Positions 47-20,176 of a DNA stretch of 29,809 bases are shown piece after piece. The position numbers were made by a program, and so were the translations under genes. The first letter of the stretch is position 1; each line of letters starts with the position of its first letter. The notes beneath the pieces are model-generated. The model ran no database searches. It saw only the letters and a program-made list of their open reading frames with translations, and was not told the DNA's origin. This DNA is from an uncultured Anaerolinea sp. (GTDB lineage: Bacteria; Chloroflexota; Anaerolineae; Anaerolineales; Villigracilaceae): the NCBI GenBank assembly GCA_964494055.1, contig CAZBRI010000001.1:1-29809 (forward strand), read 5' to 3'.

Positions 47-1080
47 AGGAAATCTACAACGGCATGTGTAAATTCATGTTCATAGCCAATCACATGTCCT
101 GGCGGCCACCACCCGCCGATATAAGGATGGGTTGAATTTGTAACAAGGATCGTTCTGAATCCCTGTTCATCAGCCGGATCTTCCAGGTTCAAGTACTGGA
201 GTTCATTCATTCTTTCCAGGTTGAAAATCAAGCTGCCTTTGCTGCCATAGATCTCAAAATAATTATAATTTTTTCGGCCGCTGGCAAACCGGCTGGATTC
301 AAACGAGCCAAGTGCGCCATTTTTAAACTCAACCACCATGAAAGCAGCATCATCAACGGTTACCTGACCCATGTCTTCGCCGGCAGAACCAGATTTGAAA
401 GTTCCAGCGTCCTTACCAGGTAACGGTCGTTCTTTAACAAAGGTTTTCAGCATCGCACTGACACTGTCAACTTCACCTATTAAATAACGAGCCAGGTCCA
501 CACTGTGAGAATTGAGGTCATAATGGGGGCCAGCACCTGCAAATTTTTTTTGCAGATGCCATGTCAGCGGGAAGTTGGGATCCGTGATCCAATCCTGGAG
601 ATAAGTACCACGCCAGTGGAAAATCTGACCGATCTTACCCTCCTCGATCATTTTCTTTGCAAAAGTGATCGCAGGTGTTCTTCGATAGTTATGATTCAAG
701 TAATGCAGAACACCAGCTTTTTCTGCCGCCTCATACATTTCTTTTGCTTCTGCATAATTTAGAGCAACGGGTTTTTCACAGAATATTTGTTTTCCGTTCT
801 TCGCGGCGGCCAACACAATTTCTTTGTGAAGAAAGGTTGGTGTACAAATATCAATAATATCGATGTCCGGCCGTTCAACGACTTTTTTCCAATCGTCAGA
901 GGTTTCTTCCCAACCCCAGTTTTTTGCAAATTCGCCAGTCCCTGCTTGATCCTGGCCGCATGCAACTTTTAAAACCGGTTGTAAACCAACACTGAAGAAT
1001 TTAGGGGCGGAAGTCCAGGCATTACTGTGTGCCTTTCCCATAAACTTCGTCCCAATAATGGCAACATTAACTTTTTTCAA
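47..1080 (-). CDS. Gfo/Idh/MocA family NAD-dependent oxidoreductase (levoglucosan-dehydrogenase-like clade), 3'-truncated by the contig end
   Basis: Motifs [35 protein letters not shown] and DLNSHSVD. Likely TTG start at 1080 with AAGGAG upstream. The ORF-track C-terminus DRKSVV* is adapter-derived. Confidence 0.9.
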
Positions 1081-1143
1081 GGGGTTTTCTCCTTTTTTTA
1101 GCAACTCTTTTTAGTGAGGGTCTTATTTTTCCAAAATGCTGGA

Positions 1144-2007
1144 TTAGACCAGTGCCGCAGCGATTTTCTTGAGTTCCTTCACACTTAAGGCAACAGCCTC
1201 TTCTTCACGCTCTGTCCAATCTGTGTGCGGGTGATCGATTTCAACAGCCAGGAAACCTTTAAAGTTGGCTTTATGCAGCAGCTGAGCAAGTGCCTGGTTG
1301 TTGATTAAACCCTGTCCAACTGGAACACCAGCAAAGAAATGCCAATCAGTGGGCCTGGCGTTTTTATCGGGCATCAGGTCTTTCACATGGGTCGCAAGAA
1401 CATATGGGGCTAATTTTTCCATTCCAGCGATCGGGTCGTCCAAAAGGCGGAGGAAATTTCCTGTATCAAAATTCAAACCAAAATATTCAGAATCCACTTC
1501 AGTCAGTAATTGCAGGATCTCGTCAGAAGTAAAGTCAATGTGATTCTCAACAGCCAGTTTTACACCGAAATCTTTTGCAACGACTACAGCTTTCTTAAAC
1601 ATTTCGACCAGGGCTTTGATTTGCGGACCATGGGGTTCATGGCGAAACATTAAACTGCTTCCGACAACACGCATTACATCTGCGCCTATGGCTTTGGCAT
1701 TGGGAATGCTTGCAACCATTTCATCGTAAGCAGTCCAATTTTGGCCTCGTTCCAGTCCATCGGGATGACCCCAGGCGTAAACTCTATCAAATTTATATTC
1801 ATCAAGCTTCGTTTTTAGATCTTTAAACCATGCCAGGTCAGCTTTGGCAGGAAAAAAACAGGACTCCAACGAAACACCATCCACATCTAATTCTTTCGCG
1901 CGGGCAAGGAAATCCTGCATTGTATAATTTTTGGCGGGTGGTTTTTGATCCGGATACACTTCACCAAAAAAACGGTGATAACAATAACTATCGATTCCTA
2001 TTTTCAT
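1144..2007 (-). CDS. Sugar phosphate isomerase/epimerase family protein (xylose-isomerase-like/AP endonuclease 2 TIM barrel)
   Basis: Four metal-ligand motifs VENH, FDTGN, THVKD and VEID, plus GQGLIN. AGGAGG RBS upstream. Confidence 0.85.
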   Translation of the reverse strand: MKIGIDSYCYHRFFGEVYPDQKPPAKNYTMQDFLARAKELDVDGVSLESCFFPAKADLAWFKDLKTKLDEYKFDRVYAWGHPDGLERGQNWTAYDEMVASIPNAKAIGADVMRVVGSSLMFRHEPHGPQIKALVEMFKKAVVVAKDFGVKLAVENHIDFTSDEILQLLTEVDSEYFGLNFDTGNFLRLLDDPIAGMEKLAPYVLATHVKDLMPDKNARPTDWHFFAGVPVGQGLINNQALAQLLHKANFKGFLAVEIDHPHTDWTEREEEAVALSVKELKKIAAALV

Positions 2008-2104
2008 ATTTGTTCCTCCTGGTTATTTGGTCTGATCTTTTTTATCTATCTCTTTTTTGCCTGAACACAAATTTACGAGATACTAATAATTATCCCGGTA
2101 AACC

Positions 2105-2122
2105 TGTACTTACAGGATAACA
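2105..2122. promoter_or_regulatory. Putative GntR operator, copy 1 (TGTACTTACAGGATAACA)
   Basis: Matches the 18-mers at 2299 and 16196 and includes the palindrome CCTGTA-CT-TACAGG (2103-2116). Lies just downstream of the minus-strand -10 box. Confidence 0.7.
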
Positions 2123-2263: not shown

Positions 2264-2291
2264 TTGACACCGGTTACAATTTTGCTATAAT
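2264..2291 (+). promoter_or_regulatory. sigma70 consensus promoter of the gntR operon (TTGACA-16-TATAAT with extended -10 TG)
   Basis: TTGACA at 2264-2269, TG at 2283-2284, TATAAT at 2286-2291. Confidence 0.75.
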
Positions 2292-2298
2292 TACAAGT

Positions 2299-2316
2299 TG
2301 TAATAACAGGATTACA
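2299..2316. promoter_or_regulatory. Putative GntR operator, copy 2 (TGTAATAACAGGATTACA)
   Basis: 2295-2316 is 21/22 identical to 16192-16213. It overlaps the palindrome ATTACAA-G-TTGTAAT (2290-2304) and covers the expected TSS. Confidence 0.7.
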
Positions 2317-2344: not shown

Positions 2345-3100
2345 ATGGGCGAAACAATTAAATTTGATAGCTATGTGCCTTATTACATTCAGTTAATGGA
2401 TATTCTCAAAGAAAAAATTCAACAAAAGACCTGGCAGCCCGGAGACCAGATTCCAGCGGAACAGGACCTTTGTGAACAATATGGCATAAGCCGTACTGTT
2501 GTCAGGCAGGCATTAAGAGAGATGGAACTTGAAGGTGCTATTAATCGCCGTAAAGGTAAAGGTACCTTTATTGCTATGCCAAAAATCAGTGAGGGCCTTG
2601 CTCAAAAACTGACTGGTTTTTACCAGGACATGATTGAACGTGGTCTTAAACCTGTTACAAAAGTTTTACATCAACTTGTTATTCCAGCCACTGAAAAGGT
2701 TGCCCAATTTCTCAATATCGAACCCGGTACAAAAGTGATCAAAATCCAAAGGCTCAGATATATCAACGATGAACCAATTCAAATGGTCACCACTTATTTG
2801 CCTTATGAGATCTGTCCTCAACTTGCTGAAGTCGATCTAACCAATCAATCCTTGTATCAATACCTGGAAAAAGAATGCGGTGTGTTTATTGCCAAAGGCC
2901 GCAGATACATTGAAGCTGTTCTGGCCAATGAGAATGAAGCTGCCCTGCTGGGTGTTGAAAAAGGGGCTCCGTTACTAATGTTAGACAGCATCAGTTTCTC
3001 TGGTACAGGACAACCACTTGAGTATTATCACGCATTGCACCGCGGCGATAGGTCCAGGTTTGAAGTCGAATTATGGCGTTCGCATGATTTAGAGAATTAG
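2345..3100 (+). CDS. GntR family transcriptional regulator, HutC subfamily (wHTH + UTRA)
   Basis: N-terminal PYYIQL...IPAEQDLCEQYGISRTVVRQAL...GKGTF wHTH. C-terminal UTRA-like domain (IQRLRYINDEP...EYYHALHRGDRSRF). Confidence 0.93.
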   Translation: MGETIKFDSYVPYYIQLMDILKEKIQQKTWQPGDQIPAEQDLCEQYGISRTVVRQALREMELEGAINRRKGKGTFIAMPKISEGLAQKLTGFYQDMIERGLKPVTKVLHQLVIPATEKVAQFLNIEPGTKVIKIQRLRYINDEPIQMVTTYLPYEICPQLAEVDLTNQSLYQYLEKECGVFIAKGRRYIEAVLANENEAALLGVEKGAPLLMLDSISFSGTGQPLEYYHALHRGDRSRFEVELWRSHDLEN

Positions 3101-3151: not shown

Positions 3152-4684
3152 ATGCAAAAAAAATACCTGGTTGGAGTTGACCTGGGAACAAGTGCAACAA
3201 AAGCCGCCATCTATCAAATAGATGGAACTTTAGTTGCTGAATCAATGATTGAAGTTCCTCTTGTACATCCAAAACCTGGTGTCGTCGAACAGAATAACGA
3301 CGATTTTTACACTACTGCTGCCCGGAGTGTAAAGCGCTGCATCGACTCAAGCGGTATCAACCCTTCTGAAATTGTAAGCATTGCATTCGATTCTCAAATG
3401 GCCGGTGTCGGTCTTGTTAATGAGGATTTTAAACCTGTCTCGCATTTTGACTCATGGCTGGACATGCGCTGCCAGCCGTTTATTGAATGGATGGACAAAG
3501 ACGCCGGGGAAAGAATCACTCAGCTCACAGGATGTCCTCCAACATGTGATCATGGTCCTAAAATGCTCTGGTGGAAACACGAACACCCTGATCTCTATAA
3601 TCAAACAGCCAAGTTCATTATGCCGGGTACTTATGTTGCCATTCGTGCATCGAGTTTAAAAACTGAAGATACGTTTATCGATCATACCTATATTCATTTT
3701 TCAGGGTTCAGTGATGCCAAAAATGGATCATGGTCAAAGGAACTATGTGATCAATTCGGTCTCGATATTGAAAAACTCCCAAAAATCGTAGATCCCTGTG
3801 ATATTGTCGGTGAATTATCTGAAAATGCAGCCCGGGAATTTGGGCTTCAACCGGGTACTCCTATAGCTGCCGGCGCTGGTGACACAGCAGCAAATGCCCT
3901 TGGTGCCGGAATAGTCAGAAATGGCATGTTGTTTGATGTTGCTGGAACAGCATCTGTATTAGCAGGCTGTACGAATCAGTATGTAGCAGACACTTCCAAC
4001 CGGGCACTACTAACCATGCGTTCTGTAATTCCAGGTTTATGGCACCCGCTTGCCTACATCGGAGGCGGAGGTCTGGCACTAAGATGGTTCCGGGATCAAT
4101 TTTTCAATACTAATTGCGGGTCTCTAAACCAGAACTCCGAAGAAATTTATGACAAGATGCTCTCAATGGCAGAAAATATCAACCCTGGTTCGGATGGGCT
4201 TTTCTTTTCTCCCCATCTGGGCGGACGTATCTGTCCATCCAACCCCGCCATGCGCGGTGCCTGGATTGGAGCATCCTGGTCTCATACCCAGGCTCACTTT
4301 TCCCGGGCCATCCTCGAAAGTGTTGCTTACGAGTATGCATATTATTTAAAGATCTTGAAAAGCCTGATCCCGGATCTTGAGCTGATACAAGCCAGGGTGA
4401 TTGGCGGCGGCGCTCGAAGTCGTTTTTGGAATCAAATTAAAGCAGACATCCTGAATGTTCCCACTCAAAAATTAAATGGCAGCGAATTTGGAACCTGGGG
4501 TTCAGCTATGATCGCTGGAAAAGCAGTTGGGGCAATCAAGGATCTTTCTTCCCATGCTGAAAACACTGCTGTTTTGAGCGGTAACGCGTGTGAACCCGGG
4601 AAGGCAAATCATGAGGTATATAAACCTTTAATTGAGAAATATATTTCATTACAACGTTTGTTGAATGAATTTTATTCAGCATAA
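3152..4684 (+). CDS. FGGY family carbohydrate kinase (xylulokinase-like)
   Basis: Motifs GVDLGTS, WLDMR, GAGDTAA, GERI/GGRICP and GGGARS. ATG at 3152 with GGAG upstream is preferred over the TTG at 3140. Confidence 0.9.
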   Translation: MQKKYLVGVDLGTSATKAAIYQIDGTLVAESMIEVPLVHPKPGVVEQNNDDFYTTAARSVKRCIDSSGINPSEIVSIAFDSQMAGVGLVNEDFKPVSHFDSWLDMRCQPFIEWMDKDAGERITQLTGCPPTCDHGPKMLWWKHEHPDLYNQTAKFIMPGTYVAIRASSLKTEDTFIDHTYIHFSGFSDAKNGSWSKELCDQFGLDIEKLPKIVDPCDIVGELSENAAREFGLQPGTPIAAGAGDTAANALGAGIVRNGMLFDVAGTASVLAGCTNQYVADTSNRALLTMRSVIPGLWHPLAYIGGGGLALRWFRDQFFNTNCGSLNQNSEEIYDKMLSMAENINPGSDGLFFSPHLGGRICPSNPAMRGAWIGASWSHTQAHFSRAILESVAYEYAYYLKILKSLIPDLELIQARVIGGGARSRFWNQIKADILNVPTQKLNGSEFGTWGSAMIAGKAVGAIKDLSSHAENTAVLSGNACEPGKANHEVYKPLIEKYISLQRLLNEFYSA

Positions 4685-4728: not shown

Positions 4729-5775
4729 ATGAAACAACAGGTTCGAATTTGTATGATTGGTGCCGGCAGAGTAGGGAAAAATCATTCCAGGGCTCTTACC
4801 CGCCATATTCCTAACGGAAAGATAGTTGCCCTTGTTGACCCAATGGCAGCAGTACGCGAAGAAACCGCTCGTGACTTTTCAATCGATAATCAATTTAACA
4901 GTATTGAAGAAGCCCTTGAAAAGGTTGAGTTTGAGGCAGTCATTATTACAACACCGACACCAACTCATCTGCCTCTTACAAGAATTGCAGCTGAAAACAA
5001 AAAACATGTTTTTCTTGAAAAACCAATGGCTCTCAACCTGGCTGAATGTGATGAAATAATTGAAGCTACTTCAAGACATTCTGTGATTTTGCAATTGGGA
5101 TTCATGCGTCGTTTTGATCCTGAATTTGTTGCAGCAGCAGAAAGAATACAGGCTGGTGAGATCGGAACCCCAATGATGATCAAGTCAAACACTCACGGCC
5201 CCGGACTTCCCCCGCCCTGGGCATGTGATCTTCGCACCTCCAACGGCATGCTGGCCGAAGTGAACAGCCACGATTGGGATACCACCCGCTGGCTGCTTGG
5301 ATCAAATTATTTGAGAGTCTACACAGAAGTTGCCAACTTTAAAGGTAAGGCAAATAATATTGATATCCCCAATTTCTACGACAATGTCCTGGTAAATATC
5401 AAATTTGAAAGCGGTGCACTCGGCCAAATTTCAGGGATATGCCCCTGTGGATACGGGTATGATGCAAGAGTTGAAATTGTCGGGGATAAAGGTATTATGC
5501 AGATTGGTGAACTGGCTGGACAATCCATCGTTGTCTGTACAAACAGGGACCAGGGTCTGATCACCCCAATTTACCGCACATGGCCGGAACGCTTTGCCTG
5601 GGCATATATTTACGAATTGGAACATTTTGTTGCTTGTGTACAAAATGAAACACACCCCAAAGCTGGCGGCTTTGATGGCCGCTGGGCTGTTGCCGGGGTC
5701 CTCGCCGGAACAAAATCCTTCCTGGAAGAACGCCCTGTGACCCTAAAAGAAATTTTAGACGCTGAAAAAAAATAA
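4729..5775 (+). CDS. Gfo/Idh/MocA oxidoreductase, myo-inositol 2-dehydrogenase (IolG)-like
   Basis: Motifs IGAGRVG, EKP, GFMRRFDP and EVNSHDWD. Confidence 0.88.
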   Translation: MKQQVRICMIGAGRVGKNHSRALTRHIPNGKIVALVDPMAAVREETARDFSIDNQFNSIEEALEKVEFEAVIITTPTPTHLPLTRIAAENKKHVFLEKPMALNLAECDEIIEATSRHSVILQLGFMRRFDPEFVAAAERIQAGEIGTPMMIKSNTHGPGLPPPWACDLRTSNGMLAEVNSHDWDTTRWLLGSNYLRVYTEVANFKGKANNIDIPNFYDNVLVNIKFESGALGQISGICPCGYGYDARVEIVGDKGIMQIGELAGQSIVVCTNRDQGLITPIYRTWPERFAWAYIYELEHFVACVQNETHPKAGGFDGRWAVAGVLAGTKSFLEERPVTLKEILDAEKK

Positions 5776-5787
5776 AGGTAAAAAATT

Positions 5788-6831
5788 ATGTTAGCTGCTG
5801 TTTATCATGGACCCAACGATCTGCGTGTTGAAAATGTTGAAATTCCAAAAATTACTACTGGTGAATTACTCGTCAAAGTGTTGAGTGCCAGTATTTGCGG
5901 TACTGATCTACGGATATTTCATGGAAATCACCGCATGTATGCCCCCGGTACCGTCCGGATCCCCGGTCATGAAGTGGTTGGAACCATAGCTGAAATTGGT
6001 GCAGGAATAACCAATTATTCTATTGGTCAGCGTGTCTTCTGCGCGCCAAATACTGGCTGTGGTCATTGTACCCAATGTGTTTCAGGAAACAATAATCTTT
6101 GCTCAAATTACGATGCGATCGGTGTTACATCCGACGGTGGTTTTGCTGAATATGTTCGCATTCCTGCCAATTCTGTACAACAGGGAAATATCATTCCCAT
6201 CAGTGAAACTGTCGATACAGCTGTTGCCGCTTTAATGGAACCATTTGCTTGTGTGTTGCGCGGGCAAAATGCATTAAACATGAAGCCCGGCGAGGTTGTC
6301 CTTGTCATCGGTGCCGGCCCGATTGGTATCATGCATGCCAAACTTGCCCGAGCCCGTGGTGCCGGCCGCGTCCTAGTCAGTGAACCGATCGCAGAAAGAG
6401 CCATCCAGGCCAGGCGAATGGGAGCAGACAGGGTAATCGATCCGGTAAACGAAAACTTGAAGACAGCAGTCCTCGAAGAAAGTAACGGACGAGGAGCAGA
6501 TCTGATCATAGTTGCTGCGCCAGTCCATGTTGCCCAGGAACAGGCTCTCGATCTGGCCGCCATTGGCGGAAGAATTAATTTTTTTGGCGGGTTACCAAAA
6601 GATAGACCCGCCATCAATTTCGATTCCAACATTGTCCATTACAGGGAACTGATCATTACTGCAACAACCGCCTGCAGCACCGCTGATTGCTGGCAGGCAG
6701 CCCGGATCGTCAATTCAGGCCTGGTTGATCTTTCAGATATTGTCAGCCAACGCTTTCCACTCAATAAAGCTGTAGAAGCATTTACAGCCGCTGAGGACAG
6801 AAAATCTTTAAAAATTGTTTTGGAGCCCTAA
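5788..6831 (+). CDS. Zn-dependent medium-chain (polyol/sorbitol-type) dehydrogenase
   Basis: Catalytic-zinc motifs ICGTD and GHE, structural-zinc motif CGHCTQC..NLC, EP, and Rossmann GAGPIG. Confidence 0.92.
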   Translation: MLAAVYHGPNDLRVENVEIPKITTGELLVKVLSASICGTDLRIFHGNHRMYAPGTVRIPGHEVVGTIAEIGAGITNYSIGQRVFCAPNTGCGHCTQCVSGNNNLCSNYDAIGVTSDGGFAEYVRIPANSVQQGNIIPISETVDTAVAALMEPFACVLRGQNALNMKPGEVVLVIGAGPIGIMHAKLARARGAGRVLVSEPIAERAIQARRMGADRVIDPVNENLKTAVLEESNGRGADLIIVAAPVHVAQEQALDLAAIGGRINFFGGLPKDRPAINFDSNIVHYRELIITATTACSTADCWQAARIVNSGLVDLSDIVSQRFPLNKAVEAFTAAEDRKSLKIVLEP

Positions 6832-6837: not shown

Positions 6838-7800
6838 ATGACCTCACATTCTGACTTCCCAATACCGCGGCCAGTGATGACGGTTTTGGGTCCCGTATCA
6901 TATGAGCATCTTGGAATCACTGATGCCCATAACCATCTCTGGATCGAGCCGGTTGATGGTGCAGACAAAAATGCCCCGGTTTTAACTGATTACAATGCGA
7001 TCGTTAAAGAATTGGTGGAATACCGAAGCGATGGGGGAGCTTCAATATTAGACTGTCAGCCAACGGGCTGCGGCCGAAATGGAAATAAACTTTTCACCCT
7101 TTCAAAAGAAACCGGTATAAACATTATTGCAAGTACTGGTTTCCACCGAAAGAAATATTATGCTCCAGATCACTGGATGTTTAAAAATAACTCACAGCAA
7201 TGTTACGATCTGTTTCTCAAAGAGATTCAGGAAGGATTGATCGAAACAGCTGAAACTTCCAACCCGGTTCTTGCCGGCTTTGTAAAAGTTGCAGTAGAAC
7301 AAAATTGGGCAGATTGTTCAAGGGATGCGCTTGATGGAGCAGCCGAAGCAGTAATACAAACTGGGGTTGTTATGGAAATCCATACTGAAAAAGGCGCACT
7401 CGCCGAAAAAGTCAGCCTGTACCTGTGCGATAAAGGCGTGTCACCAGGTCAGTTGGTTTTTTGCCATATGGATAAGCGGCCCGATTTGGGTCTGCATAAA
7501 GAACTTGCCCGGCTCGGTGTACTTCTTGAGTACGACACTTTTTTCCGTCCGAAATATAACCCGGAAGAAACGCTCTGGCCGCTGATCACGCAAATGGTTG
7601 TTGCCGGTTTCGCCGAGAGTATTGCTCTCGCTACAGATATGGCAGAATCCGAATCATATCATTTTATCGGCGGGGGTCCTGGTCTTGCCAGTTTCCCCTC
7701 CAAAATTCAAAAGAGATTAATTGAAAATGAAATTCCGGGTAAAGCAAGAACTCACTTATTGGGCGGTAATATCGCTCGAAGGCTGTCCGGGATTAAATAA
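6838..7800 (+). CDS. Phosphotriesterase-related amidohydrolase (PTE/Php family; likely lactonase)
   Basis: N-terminal VMTVLGPV...LGITDAHNHL (HxH), STGFH, bridging K (GFVKVA), H (IHTE), H (CHMD) and D (LATD). Confidence 0.88.
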   Translation: MTSHSDFPIPRPVMTVLGPVSYEHLGITDAHNHLWIEPVDGADKNAPVLTDYNAIVKELVEYRSDGGASILDCQPTGCGRNGNKLFTLSKETGINIIASTGFHRKKYYAPDHWMFKNNSQQCYDLFLKEIQEGLIETAETSNPVLAGFVKVAVEQNWADCSRDALDGAAEAVIQTGVVMEIHTEKGALAEKVSLYLCDKGVSPGQLVFCHMDKRPDLGLHKELARLGVLLEYDTFFRPKYNPEETLWPLITQMVVAGFAESIALATDMAESESYHFIGGGPGLASFPSKIQKRLIENEIPGKARTHLLGGNIARRLSGIK

Positions 7801-11089: not shown

Positions 11090-12451
11090 TATTAACCGGG
11101 CAGATGCATGATCAATAATGTTCCAGATTTGCTCGACCCAGTCTTTATGTTCTGGTTTCATTAATACCGACCGCATACAAGTAATGGTTTCTTCATCCTG
11201 CTCCATATCACCTGGCAAGTCAAAGAGACTTATGGGAAGGTTTGCCAGCGCCAGGTAAAGGTGCTCTTTTTCTGCTTCTTCAAACAGTTTTTTCGCCAGT
11301 TCAGATGCAGCACTAACTTTTTTCGCCCGAAATATCCAGATGATGATGTCTAATTCCGGATTAAATGCTGTAATAAAACGCTTGTCCAGGTATAACTTAT
11401 TCCATAAAATCAAAGCCGCTTCCCGTCCGGCTTCCAAACCTTTGGCAAATTCTCCTCCCTTAACCAAAGGAAGCAGCTTTTGGGTTGCCCACAATCCAAC
11501 TGCAGCAGCCCCTGGACGTGAGCACTCAAGACTGATCTCTCCAAGATGTAATTCTGACGAACTGAAATAAGTGTACGGGGAATTGTGTTTATAAAAACGA
11601 CCAACAGATGGATCTTTAAATAAGATACACCCGCAACCATATGGCTGCAATCCATGTTTATGTGGATCAACGACGATTGAATCAGCCTCATGAATATGTT
11701 CATATATTTCCGCTGTTTGGGCACTCAGATTACCGGCCAATTTAAAATAACCACCATAAGCTGAATCAACGTGAATTCTGAAACCGTATTTTTTACGCAA
11801 TTTTAGAATATCGAGAAGCGGATCAATTGATCCGGTTGCTGTTGTACCTATTGTGACGACGACAGTTCCAATCCCGCCTCTCTCGAGTCGATTTTGAAGG
11901 GCATTCAAGTCCATCCTGCCGAGCCTGTCACTCGCGATAGATTCATAATTTAGTTTCAAGACAGAACTGATCCGGCTGTGTGTGTAGTGAGCCTGGTCTG
12001 AAGCCAGCACAATACCATCAGGATTGATCTTTCCTGCAACCCATAAAGCTTCGAGGTTTGCCATTGTTCCGCCGCCAGTTAAGTGGCCCAGGTATGTATC
12101 CCAGCCAAACATGCCGGCAATTTCCCGGACTGCTTCTTTTTCCATTTGAGAACTGGCTTTACCGCCATCCAGTGCATGGTTGTTTGGATTGATCCACATG
12201 GCAAGCATATAAGCAAGGCGGGCTGCTGGATGAGGCGGTTTGAGCATCTGCCCTGCATACAACGGATGAAAGTAAGGATAATTATCCTGAAGCCGTTGAG
12301 CAGTTTCAAGCAAAACACTTTCCAGCTGATTGTTTATGGGGTTTTTTTCGGCAGGCTGAAGATAAGAAAAACCCGAATCCATTTTTTCAATTGCTTTTCT
12401 TAGTATATCCAGCGTCTCAAGATCTAAATTGGAGAATGATTGATTATTCAT
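11084..12451 (-). CDS. Group II PLP-dependent decarboxylase (GAD/TDC/aspartate-1-decarboxylase family)
   Basis: Motifs GGTMANLEAL, HYTH, GTTATGSID, HVDSAYGG and DPHKH (PLP Lys). Confidence 0.9.
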   Translation of the reverse strand: MNNQSFSNLDLETLDILRKAIEKMDSGFSYLQPAEKNPINNQLESVLLETAQRLQDNYPYFHPLYAGQMLKPPHPAARLAYMLAMWINPNNHALDGGKASSQMEKEAVREIAGMFGWDTYLGHLTGGGTMANLEALWVAGKINPDGIVLASDQAHYTHSRISSVLKLNYESIASDRLGRMDLNALQNRLERGGIGTVVVTIGTTATGSIDPLLDILKLRKKYGFRIHVDSAYGGYFKLAGNLSAQTAEIYEHIHEADSIVVDPHKHGLQPYGCGCILFKDPSVGRFYKHNSPYTYFSSSELHLGEISLECSRPGAAAVGLWATQKLLPLVKGGEFAKGLEAGREAALILWNKLYLDKRFITAFNPELDIIIWIFRAKKVSAASELAKKLFEEAEKEHLYLALANLPISLFDLPGDMEQDEETITCMRSVLMKPEHKDWVEQIWNIIDHASARLIK

Positions 12452-12514
12452 TTTTATTCCTGGTAAATAGATTTATTCAAACCTGCTCAATTTATGTTTA
12501 CTTCACAAAGAGAA

Positions 12515-13507
12515 TTACCCCGGGTACCATACAACACGCGGATCATCAGCTGACCGTTTGTATTCCCAGGACTCGTCTATCATCCTTTTCAGGTCATATT
12601 CCGGACGCCATCCTAAAAGAAATTTAGCCTTTGTATTATCCAGCCAGGTGGAATGAAACGGCGTTTTTATATCAACAAGCGGCAGACCCCGGCTGACAGC
12701 CAGGTATTCACCAAGTTTCCTATAATCAACCGGTTCATCCATACATATATTAAATAACTGCTGATGAGCTTTCGGATTCCCCAGCGCCAACAGGATCGCA
12801 CTAACCAGGTCATTCACATGAATAAAATTTCTTTTTACCGGTTTACTGTCTGGATCGAGCATGATCGGGATAGTTGAACTCCGTTGGTAAGCAGCTGCCT
12901 GTTCAGGACCAACCAGGTCTCGCCAGCGCGGACCTCCAAAAACATCATCTCCAAAAGACAATTGATATTTAAAATCATCTTTCTCCATGATCCATGGGGC
13001 TCTCAAGCAGCAGCCATTCAAATTATATTGAATATAATACTGCTCCAACATGACCTCTTCCAGCACTTTTGATAGTGCGTAACAACCCGGGTAGGCAGAA
13101 TGCTTTTGGGTTTCAGTGACCGGGATGGCATGTGGATAAACAAAATGACCCACTCCTGCGTCGCCGCCAATCAGGATAAACTGTTGAAAAGCGGGACTTG
13201 TTCGGCAGGTTTCAAGCAGCCAGAACAGGCCTTTGACAGCAACATCCATTATTTGATCCGGGGTATCTTTACAGGTAGCAAGGTGAACAACATGGGTCAC
13301 CCCATCCATGGCAGTTTCAACTGTCTGACGGTCTTCAATTGACCCCCGGACAATCTCCAAACGGGCATTTCCTTTCAAAACTCGGTGATGGCACAAAGCT
13401 CGAATCTGGAATTTATCAAAATTATGATCATCCAGCAGCCTATTTATTAAAGTCTGCCCGACTTTTCCGGCAGCGCCGGTAATTAATATTCGATCTTGAA
13501 GAGACAT
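12515..13507 (-). CDS. Extended SDR, NAD-dependent epimerase/dehydratase family
   Basis: Motifs ITGAAGKVG, HLA, YALSK (YxxxK) and IHVNDL. ATG at 13507 with GGAG RBS. Confidence 0.87.
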   Translation of the reverse strand: MSLQDRILITGAAGKVGQTLINRLLDDHNFDKFQIRALCHHRVLKGNARLEIVRGSIEDRQTVETAMDGVTHVVHLATCKDTPDQIMDVAVKGLFWLLETCRTSPAFQQFILIGGDAGVGHFVYPHAIPVTETQKHSAYPGCYALSKVLEEVMLEQYYIQYNLNGCCLRAPWIMEKDDFKYQLSFGDDVFGGPRWRDLVGPEQAAAYQRSSTIPIMLDPDSKPVKRNFIHVNDLVSAILLALGNPKAHQQLFNICMDEPVDYRKLGEYLAVSRGLPLVDIKTPFHSTWLDNTKAKFLLGWRPEYDLKRMIDESWEYKRSADDPRVVWYPG

Positions 13508-13680
13508 TTTTACTCCAAAAATTTCACAACTCAAATAAGGCTTTAAGCCGCACTATTAACGGTAAACCCGTCTAATTGTATTCCAAAGTTGCTAAAAACC
13601 CCCTTGGTGCCAGGAAACACTTATTTGATTTTCCAGTTTTTTGAATAAGTTCAAATTTTTATATCTTAACACTAATAACA

Positions 13681-13740: not shown

Positions 13741-15285
13741 TTATGGATTTGTTTGAATACTTTTTAATAGATCACCGATCTCAGCCAAATAATTTCCTGC
13801 TTTCAGAAAAACAGGCATAATTTTTTCGTAGATTGCCACATTTTCCTGGATAGGATCCGTAAAATCTTCTACTTCATGTATTTCATCAATAATTTCGAAA
13901 TCCTTCCAATATCCTGTACCCACTGCAGCCAGGGCAGCTGCTCCAAGCGCTGCTGCCTGTTGGTCTATATTTGTTTTGATAATTCGAAGTTTAAATAGGT
14001 CTGCATAAATTTGCCTCCATAGTTTGCTGCGGCTCCCGCCGCCTACAACCACGATCTCATCGGTAACAGGCATCTTTTTCCTTAACTCATCAAGGGCTAT
14101 CCGCATCTCCATCGCGACACCTTCCATGGCTGCCCGGATCAAATCTGATCTTTTAGTACCAAGATCCAACCCCAAAAACGCACCCCGGATATTAATGCTG
14201 GCATCAATCGATGAACCTCCAGCCAGGCTGGGGTTAAAGAGGATCCCGTTTGAACCAACAGGTTCTGTGGAAGCTAGTGATGTCATCAAATCATATACGT
14301 CCATTCCATCCTTATTGGCTTGTTCAACAAGATCAGCACACACCTGGTCACGCAGCCAGCGGAAACTCGACCCTGAAGAAAAAACCGGGATTGCTGAATT
14401 AAACAGTCCCGGGATAACCGCTGTAAAAACAAACGGTTTAAAGTGATCATCCAATATGGGTGATTTTGTTGTCACCGCAATCCAGCTTGAGGATCCCTGA
14501 GAATTATAAATTCTGCCGTCTTTGATGTTCCGGGCACCCAGGGCCATGCAGGAATTATCTACACCCCCAGCCGCAACTTTGACATTGGTGTGCAGTCCAA
14601 GCTCCCGGGCTGCTGAAGCTGTTAATGTACCGATTATTTCAGAGGATGGTTTAATTTCCGGGAAGATTTCCCTTGGTAGACCGGAAGCGCTGATCAATTG
14701 ATCAGAATAATCCCACTTCAGAAGATCATAAACACCTGATCCGGAAGCATAAGAAAAATCCGTACAGGTACTTCCAGTCAATCGATAATTTATATAATCT
14801 TTGGTTCCGATCACGCTATGGATCTTTTTAAACATCTCGGGTTCATTATCCCGGTACCACATGATCTTAAAAACCGAATAAAGCGGGGCTGGAAAACCAT
14901 TACCTGTCAGGTTGTACCACTCCCTTTCCGAAATGTTTTTGAACATAGCCTGTGCCTGAACGACCGCACGGGAATCAGACCAGATGGGTGAACTCTCCCT
15001 TAATAATTTCCCGTTTTTATCAAGCGGGATTACTCCCAGGCTGTGACCCGATATCCCTAACCCAACAATATCATTAACATCGATCTTTGATTTTTGGAGA
15101 AGTCCCCGGGTGCTTTCAACCACAGCCGTCCACCAATCTTCAGGATACTGTTCATGCCAGCCAGGCCGGGTATAGTGTGTTGCATACGGGACAAATGTTT
15201 CAGCAGCGCACCTGCCGTCTTCAGAATAAAGTGATGCCTTGTTGCCGCCAGTACCCAGATCAAATGCAATAAAAAAACGTCCCAT
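13741..15285 (-). CDS. FGGY family carbohydrate kinase (xylulokinase-like), second paralogue
   Basis: Motifs FDLGTGG, WSDSR, FSYASGS, GGVDNS and GGGSRS. ATG at 15285 with GGAG RBS. Confidence 0.9.
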   Translation of the reverse strand: MGRFFIAFDLGTGGNKASLYSEDGRCAAETFVPYATHYTRPGWHEQYPEDWWTAVVESTRGLLQKSKIDVNDIVGLGISGHSLGVIPLDKNGKLLRESSPIWSDSRAVVQAQAMFKNISEREWYNLTGNGFPAPLYSVFKIMWYRDNEPEMFKKIHSVIGTKDYINYRLTGSTCTDFSYASGSGVYDLLKWDYSDQLISASGLPREIFPEIKPSSEIIGTLTASAARELGLHTNVKVAAGGVDNSCMALGARNIKDGRIYNSQGSSSWIAVTTKSPILDDHFKPFVFTAVIPGLFNSAIPVFSSGSSFRWLRDQVCADLVEQANKDGMDVYDLMTSLASTEPVGSNGILFNPSLAGGSSIDASINIRGAFLGLDLGTKRSDLIRAAMEGVAMEMRIALDELRKKMPVTDEIVVVGGGSRSKLWRQIYADLFKLRIIKTNIDQQAAALGAAALAAVGTGYWKDFEIIDEIHEVEDFTDPIQENVAIYEKIMPVFLKAGNYLAEIGDLLKSIQTNP

Positions 15286-15307
15286 ATTAGTTCTCCAAAT
15301 TGAAAAT

Positions 15308-16006
15308 CTAAAATTCTGTGAAACCACCGGGAAATTCAGAACATTCTTGTAATATCAGTGAGGCAGAACGTATACCAATTCCAAAACGCCTTGCACCTCT
15401 GCGGTACATTTCCAGTATCGTATCAAGACTTCTTACACCGCCGGAAGCTTTTATCAAAGCCGAATCTCCGATAATAGATTTTATTAAACTCACATTTTCC
15501 AGGGTAGCACCAGTCGGGGTATATCCGGTTCCAGTTTTAATAAAAGCTGCCCCGGCCTTTACAGCCAATTCACTTCCCAACCTTATTTGATCGTTATTCA
15601 AATAATGGCATTCCAGTATAACTTTAACTGGTCTGCCCTCCGCCGCATCAATGACGGCCTTTATGTCATCAAAGACATATTTTTCATCACCCGAAATTAA
15701 TTTCCCAATACTGATCACCATATCCAGCTCATCACATTCCAGCTGAACAAGTTCCCGGGCTTCTGCAGACTTAATCCTGGTAGTTTGTCCCCCGCTTGGG
15801 AAGCCAACATTTCCAGAAATTTTTATCCCGGGTGTCTCTTTTAATAATTCTTTCGCATAATTTGTTTGACTAGGCAGGGTTGTTACCAGGAAGCAGTGAT
15901 GCTGCATCGCAACCCTGACAGTCTCTTGAATAATGTTATCGCTGTGATCAGGTTGAACAGCACTAAGATCGATCATCTGTGCAATGTCGTAATAAGTCAA
16001 TTTCAT
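15308..16006 (-). CDS. deoC: Deoxyribose-phosphate aldolase (DeoC) family class I aldolase
   Basis: Motifs VGFPSG, ELDMVI, VKVILE, IKTGTG (Schiff-base Lys) and IKASGGVR. ATG at 16006 with AAAGGTG RBS. Confidence 0.88.
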   Translation of the reverse strand: MKLTYYDIAQMIDLSAVQPDHSDNIIQETVRVAMQHHCFLVTTLPSQTNYAKELLKETPGIKISGNVGFPSGGQTTRIKSAEARELVQLECDELDMVISIGKLISGDEKYVFDDIKAVIDAAEGRPVKVILECHYLNNDQIRLGSELAVKAGAAFIKTGTGYTPTGATLENVSLIKSIIGDSALIKASGGVRSLDTILEMYRRGARRFGIGIRSASLILQECSEFPGGFTEF

Positions 16007-16162
16007 GGGTTCACCTTTTATTATGGAAACAACCTTTTTTTGTTGAAGAAAATTCCCCAACAGCAAAAAACTTATCTCCTGAAAATTTTCCAATATTGAA
16101 ATACCAATTCTTGGATTACTTGATATTCTATTTTTCCTAATAAATCTGGTAGCTTAGCGCTA

Positions 16163-16191
16163 TTGCTATATAACGATCTATTAATTATAAT
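16163..16191 (+). promoter_or_regulatory. sigma70-type promoter of the 16385-20176 operon (TTGCTA-17-TATAAT)
   Basis: TTGCTA at 16163-16168 and TATAAT at 16186-16191. Confidence 0.6.
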
Positions 16192-16195
16192 AAGT

Positions 16196-16213
16196 TGTAA
16201 TTACAGGATTACA
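16196..16213. promoter_or_regulatory. Putative GntR operator, copy 3 (TGTAATTACAGGATTACA)
   Basis: Contains the perfect palindrome TGTAATTACA. Near-identical to the motifs at 2105 and 2299. Confidence 0.7.
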
Positions 16214-16220
16214 GTATTAT

Positions 16221-16249
16221 ATTATAACTTTTCATTTTTCATTGATCAA
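16221..16249 (-). promoter_or_regulatory. sigma70-type promoter of the deoC-like/FGGY operon (TTGATC-17-TATAAT)
   Basis: On the minus strand, TTGATC at 16249-16244 and TATAAT at 16226-16221. Confidence 0.55.
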
Positions 16250-17386: not shown

Positions 17387-18445
17387 ATGGCTAACACAAT
17401 GAAGGCTGCTGTCTTTGAAAAACCAGGCGTGATTAAAGTTCAAGAAGTGAAAATTCCTGAAATCAATGATGACCAGGTTTTGATTCAAATTAAATATACC
17501 GGTATATGCGGAACAGATTGGAGTATTTATAACGGATGGTATTCATCCGATAAACTGCCCATGATCCCTGGCCATGAATTTTCTGGCGTCATTACTAAAG
17601 TTGGAAAAAACGCAAAAGGCCTTCAAGAAGGTGACAGGGTAACCGCAGACATTAACATGAGTTGTGGGACCTGTTTTTACTGCCTGAGAGGTGACAAATT
17701 GTTGTGTAATGAATTCACCCAGCTTGGGATACACACCAATGGTACTTTCGCAGAGTATGTCAAAGCGCCATGGTCACAGGTGCATATCTTACCGAAAAAC
17801 CTAAGCTTTGAAGAAGGTGCATTTATTGAGCCAGTTTCCTGCGTGATCCATGCAGCAAAGGCAATGAATGCGAGATTAAGCAGCAGCGTTGCAATTATTG
17901 GCTGCGGCTTAGGGGTTCTCCATGCCCGCATGGCAGTTCTCCGTGCCTGCGCACCCGTCATTATCATTGGCGACAATCCGCACAGGTTAAGCATAGCCAA
18001 ACAGATGGGGGCAGATCACATCATCGATGTTAACCTAATCGAAGATCCGGTTGCCGAAGTGATCCGCCTGACTGAGGGACGCGGTGCAGATTATGTTATT
18101 GAGGCTGTTGGTAAAGCACAAACTTACGAACAGGCTTTCAAAATGCTCCGGCGCGGCGGAACATTATCATCATTCGGCATCATGGGCGAAAATGAAACCA
18201 TAAACGTCCGGCCTTTTGAGTTTGTACTTGGCGAAAAGAAAGTTACTGGTTCATGCGCTGGCGTAGGCAGTGATTGGCCGGATGCAATGAACCTGATATC
18301 GAATGGAAGAATTGATCCGAAACCGCTTTTCTCGATGAAGGTTCCCCTGGAAGACCTGGAATGGGCGCTTCATGAAATACGGCGGGATAAAAATATTTTC
18401 AAAGTATTTGTTTCATCAGAGATCAGCGAAAGAGAAGTTCTCTAG
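17387..18445 (+). CDS. Zn-dependent medium-chain dehydrogenase, second paralogue
   Basis: Motifs ICGTD, GHE, CGTCFYC..LLC and EP. Confidence 0.92.
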   Translation: MANTMKAAVFEKPGVIKVQEVKIPEINDDQVLIQIKYTGICGTDWSIYNGWYSSDKLPMIPGHEFSGVITKVGKNAKGLQEGDRVTADINMSCGTCFYCLRGDKLLCNEFTQLGIHTNGTFAEYVKAPWSQVHILPKNLSFEEGAFIEPVSCVIHAAKAMNARLSSSVAIIGCGLGVLHARMAVLRACAPVIIIGDNPHRLSIAKQMGADHIIDVNLIEDPVAEVIRLTEGRGADYVIEAVGKAQTYEQAFKMLRRGGTLSSFGIMGENETINVRPFEFVLGEKKVTGSCAGVGSDWPDAMNLISNGRIDPKPLFSMKVPLEDLEWALHEIRRDKNIFKVFVSSEISEREVL

Positions 18446-18464
18446 TTTTACTGGAAGAAAATAA

Positions 18465-18854
18465 TTGAACATTCTTTCAGTCGAACATATTGCGGTAAAT
18501 GTTTTGGATTATCAAAAAACCCGTTCCTTCTATGGTGATCTGCTAGGTTTTAAAGAAGCAGACACCATAGATTGCGGTGATTTTTTCATCCATTATTTTT
18601 TTCTCCCCTCGGGGCAGCGCATGGAGTTCTTTGAATATAAAGCTCAAAATGAAACCAATAACAACACAGAAAGAACCCCGGGGCTGAGACACCTGGCATT
18701 TCAGGTAGTGGATGTTGCATCCCATGAAAAAGAATTACGGGCAAAAGGTGTTGAGATTACATTATCCACCTGTGATCTGCCAAATCTTGGCGCACGTGTA
18801 CTGCTCTTTCTTGATCCAAACGGTGTCACCCTGGAATTTTGTGAAAAACTCTAA
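18465..18854 (+). CDS. VOC (glyoxalase/bleomycin-resistance/dioxygenase) family protein
   Basis: Metal-ligand pattern EHIAVNV, MEFFE, HLAFQV and DPNGVTLEF. TTG start. Confidence 0.85.
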   Translation: MNILSVEHIAVNVLDYQKTRSFYGDLLGFKEADTIDCGDFFIHYFFLPSGQRMEFFEYKAQNETNNNTERTPGLRHLAFQVVDVASHEKELRAKGVEITLSTCDLPNLGARVLLFLDPNGVTLEFCEKL

Positions 18855-18934
18855 AAATTTGGTTTTGATTCACTCATTAAAGGTTATTCCCGGAATAATG
18901 CAAAATTATCTTTGTCACGGAGGTATGTAATTCA

Positions 18935-20176
18935 ATGGACAAGCGAGAAATTCTTCTCTCCCCGATCAATATTGGTACACGAAAATGTGAAAACCGCTTT
19001 TTCAGCCAGGCAATGGAATGTACAGATGCAGATAGTGATGGCAATCCTTCTGATCTGACTTACCTGAGATATGAAAATCTTTTCAAAGGCGAAGCCGGCC
19101 TGGTGAGCCTGGAAGCGATCACTATTACAGATAAAAATCGCTCTCGTCTCAACCAGCTCTTTATCATGCCCAAAAATCAACCGGCATTGACTACTTTCGT
19201 CCGTCATTTAAAAGAAATCAATCCAAAAACCCTCTTCATTTTCCAGCTTACACATTCCGGAGAACTGAGCAACCCTGATTTTTCAAAGCGCCTCTCGGTA
19301 AAACCCCTGCCAGGTTTTACTGCCGATATCTTTACAGAAGATGAATTTGAAAAGATCATGGCTGATTTCGTGCTTGCGGCCCGCATAGCCTATGATTCCG
19401 GTGCGGACGGCATCGATATGAAGTTCTGCCATGGGTATCTTGGATCACAAATACTTCGCCCGTATAACACCCGCAAATGGAAATACGGCGGCCCGTGGGA
19501 AAACCGCCGGCAATTCGCCTTTGATCTGTACGAAAGAATCCGAAAAGTAATTCCGGATAAGAATTTCCTGATCGGTTCCAAAATATCGGTTTGGGAAGGT
19601 TTTCCGGGCGGCTTTGGTACAGCAGGTCCCGACACACCTGTAATTGATCTATATGAACCTATTGATCTCATTAAAGGTCTCGAAGAACGCGGTGCACAAT
19701 ACTTTATTCAGTCTGCAGGCAGCCCATCCATCACGATCAGTTTGACACAGGCTGATAAGGATCATCCTTATTTTGCCTACCTTCACCAGTATTTTGCCAA
19801 AGTTTTTAGGGATAATTTAAAACCGGAAACCGTGGTGATCGGTTCCAATTACTCTACTTTTGGTAAAGGAAAAAATAAACTTCAAGCAGTTTCTGAAAAA
19901 GACAGTTCCTTGCTGGAGTACGGTGCACAAAACATCGCCAGGGGATATACAGACATGGTCGCTCTTGGCCGGCAATCCTTTGCGGATCCGCTTCTTGCAT
20001 TGAAATTGCGTGAAAATCGAGAAGATGAGATCAATTATTGCACAACCTGCGATAACTGTCTTGAACTCCTGATCCAGCAAAGCCCTATTGGCTGTGCAAC
20101 TTTTAACAAACATTACACGCAGGTTCTGGTTGACACACGCCGCGAAAAGGGCAGATTGAAAGTTAACCACACTTAA
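18935..20176 (+). CDS. NADH:flavin oxidoreductase / Old Yellow Enzyme family (2,4-dienoyl-CoA-reductase-like N-terminal domain) with C-terminal Cys4 motif
   Basis: Motifs LLSPINIG..NRF, QLTHSG, DGIDMKFCHGYL..Q, YGGPWENR and GRQSFADP, plus C-terminal CTTCDNC-x11-C. Confidence 0.87.
   Translation: MDKREILLSPINIGTRKCENRFFSQAMECTDADSDGNPSDLTYLRYENLFKGEAGLVSLEAITITDKNRSRLNQLFIMPKNQPALTTFVRHLKEINPKTLFIFQLTHSGELSNPDFSKRLSVKPLPGFTADIFTEDEFEKIMADFVLAARIAYDSGADGIDMKFCHGYLGSQILRPYNTRKWKYGGPWENRRQFAFDLYERIRKVIPDKNFLIGSKISVWEGFPGGFGTAGPDTPVIDLYEPIDLIKGLEERGAQYFIQSAGSPSITISLTQADKDHPYFAYLHQYFAKVFRDNLKPETVVIGSNYSTFGKGKNKLQAVSEKDSSLLEYGAQNIARGYTDMVALGRQSFADPLLALKLRENREDEINYCTTCDNCLELLIQQSPIGCATFNKHYTQVLVDTRREKGRLKVNHT

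Follow-up and report, generated by a model that had tools for sequence, protein, structure and literature searches.

Levoglucosan is handled in Bacillus smithii, Pseudarthrobacter and Paenarthrobacter by the Lgd system (PMC7676230, PMC10066097), and 3-keto-glucosides in Agrobacterium by a route made of GlycDH, the beta-eliminase AtOGE, the hydratase AtHYD and a Gfo reductase (PMC10628242). These systems proceed by oxidation, elimination, hydration and reduction. We analysed 29,809 nucleotides of contig CAZBRI010000001.1 from an uncultured Anaerolinea sp. of the Chloroflexota (hereafter the window), where positions 47-20176 hold an island of 19 genes, i.e., 18 enzyme genes and one GntR/UTRA regulator (six-frame listing of open reading frames, Pfam and NCBIfam scans). 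Three of these genes map at family level onto the oxidation-elimination-hydration-reduction route of levoglucosan and 3-keto-glycosides. This closest known system had been missed by an earlier, sequence-only reading, which could map the island onto no canonical pathway. The set as a whole has no curated match, and our literature searches found no published description of a pathway for it.

The comparison with related loci indicates that the island belongs to a conserved and widespread regulon, controlled by a GntR/HutC-type repressor and linked to CUT2 import. The oxidation-elimination-hydration-reduction chemistry and three of the gene families are shared with the Lgd and Agrobacterium systems, neither of which accounts for a dozen additional conserved enzymes. 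The genes are listed below, with families assigned by Pfam and NCBIfam using the curated cut-offs of the models.

1-46, no strand: Illumina TruSeq adapter, non-genomic, reading ...ACACTCTTTCCCTACACGACGCTCTTCCGATCT (the conspecific contigs L129/L130 align exactly from base 47)
47-1104, minus strand: GFO1, Gfo/Idh/MocA dehydrogenase, levoglucosan-dehydrogenase-like, 3' end truncated (NF052479, 378.5 bits)
1144-2007, minus strand: TIM1, PF01261 xylose-isomerase-like TIM barrel, 287 residues (Pfam)
2345-3100, plus strand: GntR/HutC-type repressor, winged helix-turn-helix and UTRA domains (PF00392 and PF07702)
3152-4684, plus strand: FGGY1 sugar kinase, XylB/GntK-like, below cut-offs (510-residue gene call taken from the conspecific contigs)
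4729-5775, plus strand: GFO2, IolG-like Gfo/Idh/MocA dehydrogenase (TIGR04380, 260 bits, cut-off 355)
5788-6831, plus strand: ZnDH1, medium-chain Zn dehydrogenase, Tdh/IolM-like (Pfam/NCBIfam)
6838-7800, plus strand: PTE-family lactonase (PF02126)
7819-8403, plus strand: cupin-type phosphoglucose isomerase, cPGI (PF06560, 110 bits)
8400-9368, plus strand: D-2-hydroxyacid dehydrogenase (2HADH), SerA/GhrB/PdxB-like (PF02826/PF00389)
9393-10037, plus strand: Eda, KDPG/KHG-type class I aldolase (PF01081; TIGR01182, 189 bits)
10052-11029, plus strand: AroE-like dehydrogenase, an orphan branch of the shikimate-dehydrogenase superfamily
11084-12451, minus strand: pyridoxal phosphate (PLP)-dependent group II decarboxylase (PF00282)
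12515-13534, minus strand: extended short-chain dehydrogenase/reductase (SDR), NAD-dependent epimerase/dehydratase family (PF01370)
13741-15327, minus strand: FGGY2 kinase, XylB-like (337 bits, cut-off 380)
15308-16093, minus strand: DeoC, deoxyribose-phosphate aldolase, DERA (TIGR00126, 190 bits); its true start is probably near 16006, since the relatives' copies have 231 residues
16385-17356, plus strand: TIM2, PF01261 protein, 323 residues, homologue of 2-hydroxy-3-keto-glucal hydratase
17387-18445, plus strand: ZnDH2, medium-chain Zn dehydrogenase (Pfam/NCBIfam)
18465-18854, plus strand: VOC/glyoxalase-fold protein (PF00903)
18935-20176, plus strand: old yellow enzyme (OYE), flavin mononucleotide (FMN) domain and C-terminal four-cysteine motif, 413 residues (PF00724)

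All families named in the sequence-only reading are present at these coordinates, although its summary had left out 2HADH, the PLP decarboxylase and the SDR. Its description of the island as built from paired paralogues, possibly for two epimers, finds no support. The pairs are just 27% (GFO1/GFO2), 30% (FGGY1/FGGY2) and 32% (ZnDH1/ZnDH2) identical, TIM1 and TIM2 have no BLASTP match to each other, and each member of a pair has its own orthologues in other phyla. Such divergence indicates ancient family members rather than duplicates.

The likeness to the Lgd system lies in GFO1, TIM1 and TIM2. In both, a Gfo/Idh/MocA protein of the levoglucosan dehydrogenase (LGDH) subfamily stands beside a PF01261 protein of about 285 residues, a second PF01261 protein (~320 residues) is homologous to glucal hydratase, and genes for a ROK regulator and a sugar ABC transporter lie nearby. 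The sizes of LgdA, LgdB1 and LgdB2 match those of GFO1, TIM1 and TIM2 (PMC7676230, PMC10066097), and lgd neighbourhoods typically carry ROK regulators, ABC transporters and extra PF01261 genes (PMC10066097). The best NCBIfam model for GFO1 is levoglucosan dehydrogenase (NF052479), with 378.5 bits for a cut-off of 650. GFO1 is 47% identical to LGDH (PDB 6a3f, 334 bits, E = 9e-99) and 49% identical to an uncharacterised protein (PDB 4h3v, 367 bits), whereas identity among true LGDHs is about 70% or higher (PMC10066097). The island further differs from the lgd clusters in having these genes split over two operons, under a GntR/HutC repressor, in its anaerobic hosts, and in at least 12 additional conserved enzymes without an lgd counterpart (kinases, lactonase, cPGI, aldolases, OYE). 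A candidate for an LgdC-type Gfo reductase of 3-keto-glucose is GFO2, which is IolG-like.

TIM1 holds the position beside GFO1 that is expected of LgdB1 (~275 residues) and is a candidate 3-keto-sugar lyase or isomerase. The top Foldseek matches of its AlphaFold2 (AF2) model (predicted confidence, pLDDT, 83) are Art22, 3tva, DgpB-C, 2zds and AtHYD, in a list that also holds ketose 3-epimerases and IolE, such that many PF01261 functions come at similar scores and the fold search does not discriminate among them. TIM2 fits an LgdB2/AtHYD-type protein by homology and by size (323 residues vs about 325). It matches AtHYD, the 2-hydroxy-3-keto-glucal hydratase (PDB 8ro4), at the level of homology only (80 bits, E = 1.2e-21), and is also homologous to SCO6571, with 130 bits for PDB 2zds. 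The island shares the oxidation-elimination-hydration-reduction logic of the Agrobacterium route and of the C-glycoside deglycosidases DgpA/DgpB-C, and the TIM1 model superposes on DgpB-C and AtHYD-type barrels. In contrast to these two systems, it has no periplasmic or TAT flavo-dehydrogenase, no glycoside hydrolase and no aglycone-handling gene. Moreover, the associated transporter is of the monosaccharide-type CUT2 family, hence the substrate is probably not a glycoside.

The LgdA-like dehydrogenase and the AtHYD-like hydratase together give substance to the redox-elimination chemistry that the sequence-only reading had considered. Its label of an Fe-S OYE is likewise plausible, because the protein combines an FMN barrel with a C-terminal CxxCxxC-x11-C motif (C369, C372, C375, C387). 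Matches of OYE in PDB and NCBIfam are limited to the N-terminal domains of TMADH, DCR and BaiCD, and no NAD/FAD reductase domain was found in its 413 residues by Pfam, NCBIfam and PDB comparisons.

A single operator is found at the promoters of the island, with the following elements.

2104-2122, plus strand: operator copy with three mismatches, just 3' of the TIM1-GFO1 -10 box; position kept in relatives
2153-2125, minus strand: TIM1-GFO1 promoter, TTGATA-17-TATAAT (consensus scan)
2264-2291, plus strand: promoter of the long operon, TTGACA-16-TATAAT, 12 of 12 matches, extended TG (consensus scan)
2298-2316, plus strand: operator TTGTAATAACAGGATTACA, half-sites TTGTAAT and ATTACAA; identical site in most relatives
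13716-13681, minus strand: intrinsic-terminator-like hairpin with a 14-bp stem after FGGY2, separating DeoC-FGGY2 from the SDR and the PLP decarboxylase
16163-16249: two face-to-face promoters, 16163-16191 (plus strand, TIM2) and 16249-16221 (minus strand, DeoC), sharing the single operator at 16195-16213

The 19-bp operator, TTGTAATNACAGGATTACA, is a palindrome of the form TTGTAAT-N6-ATTACAA. Exact copies lie at 2298-2316 and 16195-16213, and a third copy, at 2104-2122, has three mismatches, for a chance expectation of 0.02. All three directly follow a sigma-70-like -10 box, at the +1 region, and together they cover four promoters. Together with the winged helix-turn-helix and UTRA domains of the regulator, this palindromic predicted operator at the controlled promoters is what characterises a GntR/HutC regulon. 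The sequence-only reading had counted four units under one operator. The operator is indeed shared by four promoters, but there are five units: the terminator after FGGY2 and the lack of an operator for the SDR and the PLP decarboxylase set this pair apart as the fifth.

We compared the island with 124 loci of relatives, 78 from Chloroflexota and 46 others. Allowing for up to two mismatches, we found 114 operator sites, at orthologous positions, in 72 of the 78 Chloroflexota loci (1.41 Mb); the 46 non-Chloroflexota loci (0.49 Mb) have no such site. The block made of the -35 box, the -10 box and the operator is the sole conserved part of the otherwise diverged intergenic DNA. Further copies precede the ROK-ABC genes and, in distant Chloroflexota, FGGY1.

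The gene order is conserved as well. A search of GTDB species genomes gave 417 matches to GFO1, of which the best 80 are almost all from metagenome-assembled genomes (MAGs) of Anaerolineae. More than 50 of these best 80 genomes keep the order GFO1-TIM1 followed by GntR-FGGY1-GFO2-ZnDH1-PTE-cPGI-2HADH-Eda-AroE-like, with protein identities of 55-90% across these species-level genomes. Full-length loci run on collinearly with (C_GCAxxG)-DeoC-FGGY2-TIM2-ZnDH2-VOC-OYE, and in most relatives GntR through OYE form a single collinear string of genes. The units are syntenic and carry one conserved operator in more than 70 related genomes, which supports the sequence-only reading. Homologues of the AroE-like protein with more than 83% identity number at least 8000 in metagenomes. 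The gene given above in brackets, C_GCAxxG_C_C (148 residues, perhaps redox-active), lies between the AroE-like gene and DeoC in L001 (11001-11447), L002 (10986-11432), L048, L055 and L086. It is absent from the window, as is an extra 389-residue GFO that follows OYE in L001.

Outside Chloroflexota, parts of the island recur in other combinations. TIM1 always adjoins GFO1, across phyla. GFO1 and a 443-residue protein encoded to its left (Unk443, see below), with or without TIM1, travel with FGGY1, GFO2/ZnDH1, the AroE-like gene, cPGI, 2HADH and Eda in contigs binned to MAGs of Victivallaceae, Atribacter, Desulfobacterales and Spirochaetales, and to a MAG named Candidatus Hebobacterum. L079 and L093 each have a triad of TIM2, a GFO1-like gene and OYE, and TIM2 and OYE are adjacent also in L112, whose string reads ABC-TIM2-OYE-FGGY2-ZnDH2-2HADH-Eda-cPGI. 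In L107 the order is 2HADH-Eda-PTE-cPGI-AroE-like-ABC-DeoC/FGGY2, and one protein (P0243, 661 residues) is a fusion of 2HADH with the AroE-like protein. These recurrences across five phyla argue for a real functional coupling, with cPGI, 2HADH and Eda as a shared lower part. The branched pathway for related substrates that had been proposed from the sequence fits with modules recombining around these common genes.

Some of these loci have particular neighbours. In a Victivallaceae MAG (L033, 1032-5884), a GH1 glycosidase, a creatininase-fold protein and a DegT-type aminotransferase are encoded upstream of GFO1-Unk443, which hints that the 3-keto intermediate is tied to glycoside or amino-sugar metabolism in some taxa. 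In the metagenomic L093 (6651-13880), an FGGY2 homologue is found inside an acetoin-dehydrogenase-like E1/E2/E3 complex with an SDR, beside the TIM2-GFO-OYE triad. Two further AroE-like proteins are atypical: P0251 is interrupted by a DUF559-like insert, and in P0320 the C-terminus of cPGI is joined to the AroE-like protein, probably by a frameshift artefact.

The left end of the window interrupts the regulon. Bases 1-46 are adapter, hence GFO1 is truncated by the end of the contig and its apparent stop codon at position 25 lies inside the adapter. This remnant marks the window edge as the terminus of a short-read assembly contig. Conspecific contigs (including JBAXTF010000007.1 of NCBI GCA_037130355.1, an assembly to which the island is 99.9% identical, and ENA ERZ27300129) are 99.7-99.9% identical to the window from base 47 onward. 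To the left they encode the full-length GFO1 (387 residues), then Unk443 and then a ROK regulator. In L004, the closest other relative (GFO1 92% identical to that of the window), and in L014, the string further comprises TIM3 (a psicose-3-epimerase-like PF01261 protein), a CUT2 ABC ATPase, two permeases, a Peripla_BP_4 binding protein and another PF01261 gene (TIM4). The transporter that the sequence-only reading had suspected beyond the truncated end is therefore found there, left of GFO1 in L004 and L014. The island makes up about two thirds of a carbohydrate-catabolic regulon of roughly 27 genes. Unk443 (L130 724-2055, just left of the window; L004 5104-6435; L014 11307-12638) has no relative in Pfam, NCBIfam or PDB, is a "hypothetical protein" in all sources, and gave an AF2 model with a pLDDT of only 50. 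Its conservation alongside GFO1 extends to contigs assigned to five phyla, and its invariant motifs WxCExD, HCGY and SHH suggest a metal site.

Among the genes of the island, only DeoC, at the level of equivalog (190 vs 117 bits), and Eda, at the level of subfamily (189 vs 156 bits), reach a curated NCBIfam cut-off. The cupin belongs, by its similarity to PF06560 (cut-off 20.7 bits) and to archaeal structures, to the cPGI family. It is close to the enzymes of Pyrococcus and Thermococcus (E = 1e-51 to 1e-53; 1j3p, 7e-53), and its residues H89, H91, E98 and H137 presumably form the metal-ligand pattern. The closest solved relatives of PTE are MS53_0025 (3msr/3ovg, 97 bits) and Lmo2620 (3pnz, 82 bits), which we take to be lactonases for phosphorylated sugar lactones. 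The similarity is low, as it is to the NCBIfam phospho-furanose lactonase (NF045706, 105 bits, cut-off 630). 2HADH is closest to SerA, GhrB and PdxB (TIGR01327, 275 bits, cut-off 454). The AroE-like protein has no Pfam match and no PDB match in a single-sequence search. A profile search relates it to shikimate dehydrogenase (1nvt, E = 7e-8) and to 5-ketofructose reductase (7cok). It keeps the GAGGS, NRS and NATGMG-type motifs and the Lys/Asp pair, but scores only 32 bits with the shikimate dehydrogenase model (TIGR00507, cut-off 200), which indicates a member of the superfamily that is not AroE. At E <= 1e-30, its family comprises 243 clusters (50% identity) among 1.84 billion representatives.

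Two parts of the island are peculiar to the window. DeoC-FGGY2 is inverted relative to the relatives, and its products are just 45-58% identical to their resident copies (48-58% for FGGY2 alone), whereas the other proteins of the window are mostly 70-91% identical (PTE 51-64%, VOC about 60%). FGGY2 is instead 70-72% identical to kinases of L086, L088 and L090, which belong to separate DeoC-GntR-FGGY-CUT2-ABC operons with an iron-type alcohol dehydrogenase (Fe-ADH). These comparisons indicate that DeoC-FGGY2 is a xenologous, inverted replacement. We considered that the relatives of FGGY2 in L088 and L090 might be members of nucleoside operons and rejected this, as their neighbours are a sugar-binding protein and Fe-ADH. 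The SDR and the PLP decarboxylase (11084-13534) form an insertion that separates the AroE-like gene from FGGY2. None of the 124 related loci has a homologue of either, and the pair was found in four conspecific assemblies only, as expected of strain-specific passengers. Misassembly as the source of the inversion and the insertion was rejected because the arrangement is common to four independent assemblies.

The balance of these data tips slightly towards a general model in which an upper pathway through 3-keto-sugars and a phosphorylative lower pathway are under one repressor. What we infer here is the identity of the substrate, the order of the steps and the roles of the dehydrogenases; gene content, promoters and operator, conservation, co-occurrence across phyla and family assignments are as described above. 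The GntR/HutC-type repressor of the island would bind the operator at the promoters of TIM1-GFO1, of the long operon from GntR to the AroE-like gene, of DeoC-FGGY2 and of TIM2-ZnDH2-VOC-OYE, until relieved by a sugar-derived ligand of its UTRA domain. The substrate, whether one compound or a small family, would be neutral and monosaccharide-like and would enter through the CUT2 transporter encoded beyond the left end. LgdA-like GFO1 would oxidise a ring hydroxyl with NAD+, and the PF01261 metallo-enzymes, i.e., TIM1 and the AtHYD/LgdB2-like TIM2, would carry out elimination and hydration beside the ketone. The Fe-S OYE might work on the resulting enone, either reducing it to a deoxy or anhydro intermediate or desaturating in the reverse direction, while the Zn dehydrogenases, GFO2 and the AroE-like protein would reduce or epimerise ketones and so reset the stereochemistry. 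Both FGGY kinases would phosphorylate the products, which could then leave by three exits: into the hexose-phosphate pool through cPGI; by formation of a phospho-lactone, the PTE lactonase, the SerA/PdxB-like 2HADH with the AroE-like protein, and Eda, to pyruvate and triose phosphate; or through DERA to acetaldehyde and glyceraldehyde-3-phosphate.

A more specific version of this model is speculative and, in our view, unlikely. In it, the LgdA-like dehydrogenase, the AtHYD-like PF01261 protein and the reductase-less Fe-S OYE would perform a flavin/Fe-S C1-C2 desaturation or ene-reduction of a 3-keto-pyranose, which would be new to sugar catabolism. Anaerobes could thereby turn "locked" sugars (1,5-anhydro-alditols and other anhydro- or deoxy-sugars) into aldoses or deoxy-aldoses, followed by FGGY phosphorylation and cleavage by DERA or Eda, with the AroE-like protein and Unk443 as new families for further steps.

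Several observations weigh against the general model. GFO1 fails the LgdA equivalog test, and neither sequence nor fold distinguishes TIM1 from other PF01261 isomerases, epimerases, dehydratases and lyases. OYE comes without a reductase domain. The exit through Eda lacks a step, as no classical sugar-acid dehydratase feeds this enzyme. FGGY kinases are not known hexokinases, which leaves their link to cPGI uncertain. The exit through DERA may serve another substrate, e.g., deoxyribose, because DeoC-FGGY2 is xenologous and has its relatives in operons of their own. Finally, several modules occur apart in other taxa and may represent several pathways under one regulator.

This last point bears on the quite improbable alternative that there is no single pathway, but a regulator over a mosaic of independent modules (anhydro- or keto-sugar, deoxyribose kinase/aldolase and sugar-acid) for unrelated substrates. 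Modules are found apart and differently combined in other taxa, DeoC-FGGY2 was swapped for a xenologue that elsewhere forms an ABC-linked operon with its own GntR, and passengers (the SDR, the PLP decarboxylase, C_GCAxxG) come and go. Yet all units are under the same operator in more than 70 genomes, GntR to OYE is one collinear string in most relatives, and cPGI, 2HADH and Eda recur with either upper module, suggesting a shared lower pathway. At the other extreme, the island might be the regulon of levoglucosan proper (or of mannosan or galactosan), with GFO1 as LgdA, TIM1 as LgdB1, TIM2 as LgdB2 and GFO2 or ZnDH2 as LgdC; the glucose would be phosphorylated and isomerised by cPGI, and the rest would be accessory. 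The identity of GFO1 to the crystallised LGDH, its top NCBIfam model, the match of TIM2 to glucal hydratase and the sizes and neighbourhood (PF01261, ROK, ABC) shared with published lgd clusters speak for it. We nevertheless consider it distinctly unlikely: the 378 bits of GFO1 are far from the equivalog cut-off, its identity is below that of true LGDHs, and it is nearer to the uncharacterised 4h3v. Moreover, the published set of 265 LgdA members includes no Anaerolineae, the hosts are anaerobes of sediment and sludge, and the conserved FGGY, PTE, 2HADH, Eda, AroE-like, OYE, DeoC and Unk443 proteins would be left unexplained.

A cyclitol pathway (for myo-, scyllo- or chiro-inositol, or O-methyl-inositols) seems very unlikely. 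It would have IolG/IolE/IolM-like first steps, hydrolytic ring opening, the AroE-like protein as cyclitol dehydrogenase and a phospho-keto-acid leading to Eda. CUT2 ABC transporters carry inositols, and the AroE superfamily works on carbocyclic polyols. The inositol route of Thermotoga maritima uses IolG, IolM, IolN and IolO, then KDG/KDPG, and the island resembles it in combining a GFO dehydrogenase, a Zn dehydrogenase, a PF01261 epimerase and a KDPG aldolase. GFO2 is IolG-like (260 bits), both Zn dehydrogenases match IolM with about 203 bits, TIM1 and TIM2 match IolE weakly (30-36 bits), TIM3 matches IolO with 150 bits, and an Atribacter locus (L076) has two URO-D-like, methyltransferase-type genes upstream. 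However, every match to iol models is far under its cut-off, both for the Bacillus-type pathway (e.g., 260 vs 355 bits for IolG) and for that of Thermotoga (NF041097, NF041099), and the scanned proteins of the window include no IolD, IolB, IolC (PfkB), IolJ, IolA, IolN or Uxa enzymes. The cupin is of the PGI type and not IolB, and DERA and FGGY kinases have no role in known inositol routes. Oxidative routes for apiose were reportedly described by Carter et al. in 2018, and a branched- or short-sugar pathway of this kind (D-apiose-like, or for a tetrose or pentose) would use a dehydrogenase, a lactonase, 2-oxidation and isomerisation, an OiaC-like PF01261 decarboxylase, an FGGY ketose kinase and a cupin isomerase, to erythrose-4-phosphate or a pentose phosphate. 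Such routes (the chemistry of ApnO is summarised in PMC12994016) are paralleled by the co-occurrence of a GFO dehydrogenase, a lactonase, a hydroxyacid dehydrogenase, a PF01261 protein, an FGGY kinase and a CUT2 binding protein, and 2HADH resembles PdxB and SerA, enzymes of short phospho-hydroxyacids. Some TIM1 orthologues are labelled "3-oxoisoapionate decarboxylase" by JGI, but this is an automatic label. We find this alternative highly improbable. The window has no AptA/B transketolase, no RuBisCO-like protein (OiaT/OiaX families) and no DUF1537 kinase (OiaK family), and no NCBIfam model of the apiose pathways was matched. The closest characterised relatives of PTE presumably take phosphorylated lactones, which would place the kinase first, unlike in the apiose routes.

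Other known pathways match in part. Eda is present but, for an Entner-Doudoroff pathway, the window has no Edd/IlvD-family or other sugar-acid dehydratase. DeoC is present but, compared with the deo system, its partner kinase is of the FGGY type and the window has no phosphorylase or mutase. Pfam and NCBIfam scans of the island revealed no thiamine diphosphate enzyme, PfkB kinase, class II aldolase or aldehyde dehydrogenase. The lsr system for autoinducer-2 comprises a CUT2 ABC transporter, the FGGY kinase LsrK, whose substrate is a small diketo-sugar, and LsrF of the DeoC/FbaB family. The regulon shares with it a CUT2 importer, FGGY kinases and a DeoC-superfamily enzyme, but both kinases match LsrK weakly (154 and 212 bits, cut-off 528), DeoC is DERA-type rather than LsrF-type, and there is no LsrG or LsrR.

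Directly right of the island (20266-23877, minus strand) lies an operon for a HerA-like ATPase (570 residues), an unannotated protein of 198 residues and a NurA-domain nuclease (401 residues). PADLOC gave only weak matches to HerA, such that roles in DNA repair and in defence are not separable. The remainder of the window (24036-29598) encodes housekeeping proteins: a SIMPL/DUF541 protein, a 3-hydroxyisobutyrate-dehydrogenase-like protein, YitT, the Era GTPase, whose gene overlaps that of an EamA transporter by 16 nucleotides, the Ogt methyltransferase and a second, short EamA reading frame. Scans of the window for Rfam families and tRNAs were negative.

In sediments, soils and anaerobic digesters, Anaerolineae count among the most abundant uncultured fermenters, and the regulon occurs in most of the Anaerolineae genomes sampled. 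Under the general model, it extends the recently discovered oxidation-elimination-hydration-reduction paradigm by a phosphorylative lower pathway and perhaps by a flavin/Fe-S step. With the substrate named, about 20 genes per genome, including two wholly unannotated families, would gain a function. A carbon source on which these hosts live would become known as well, and this could aid their cultivation.

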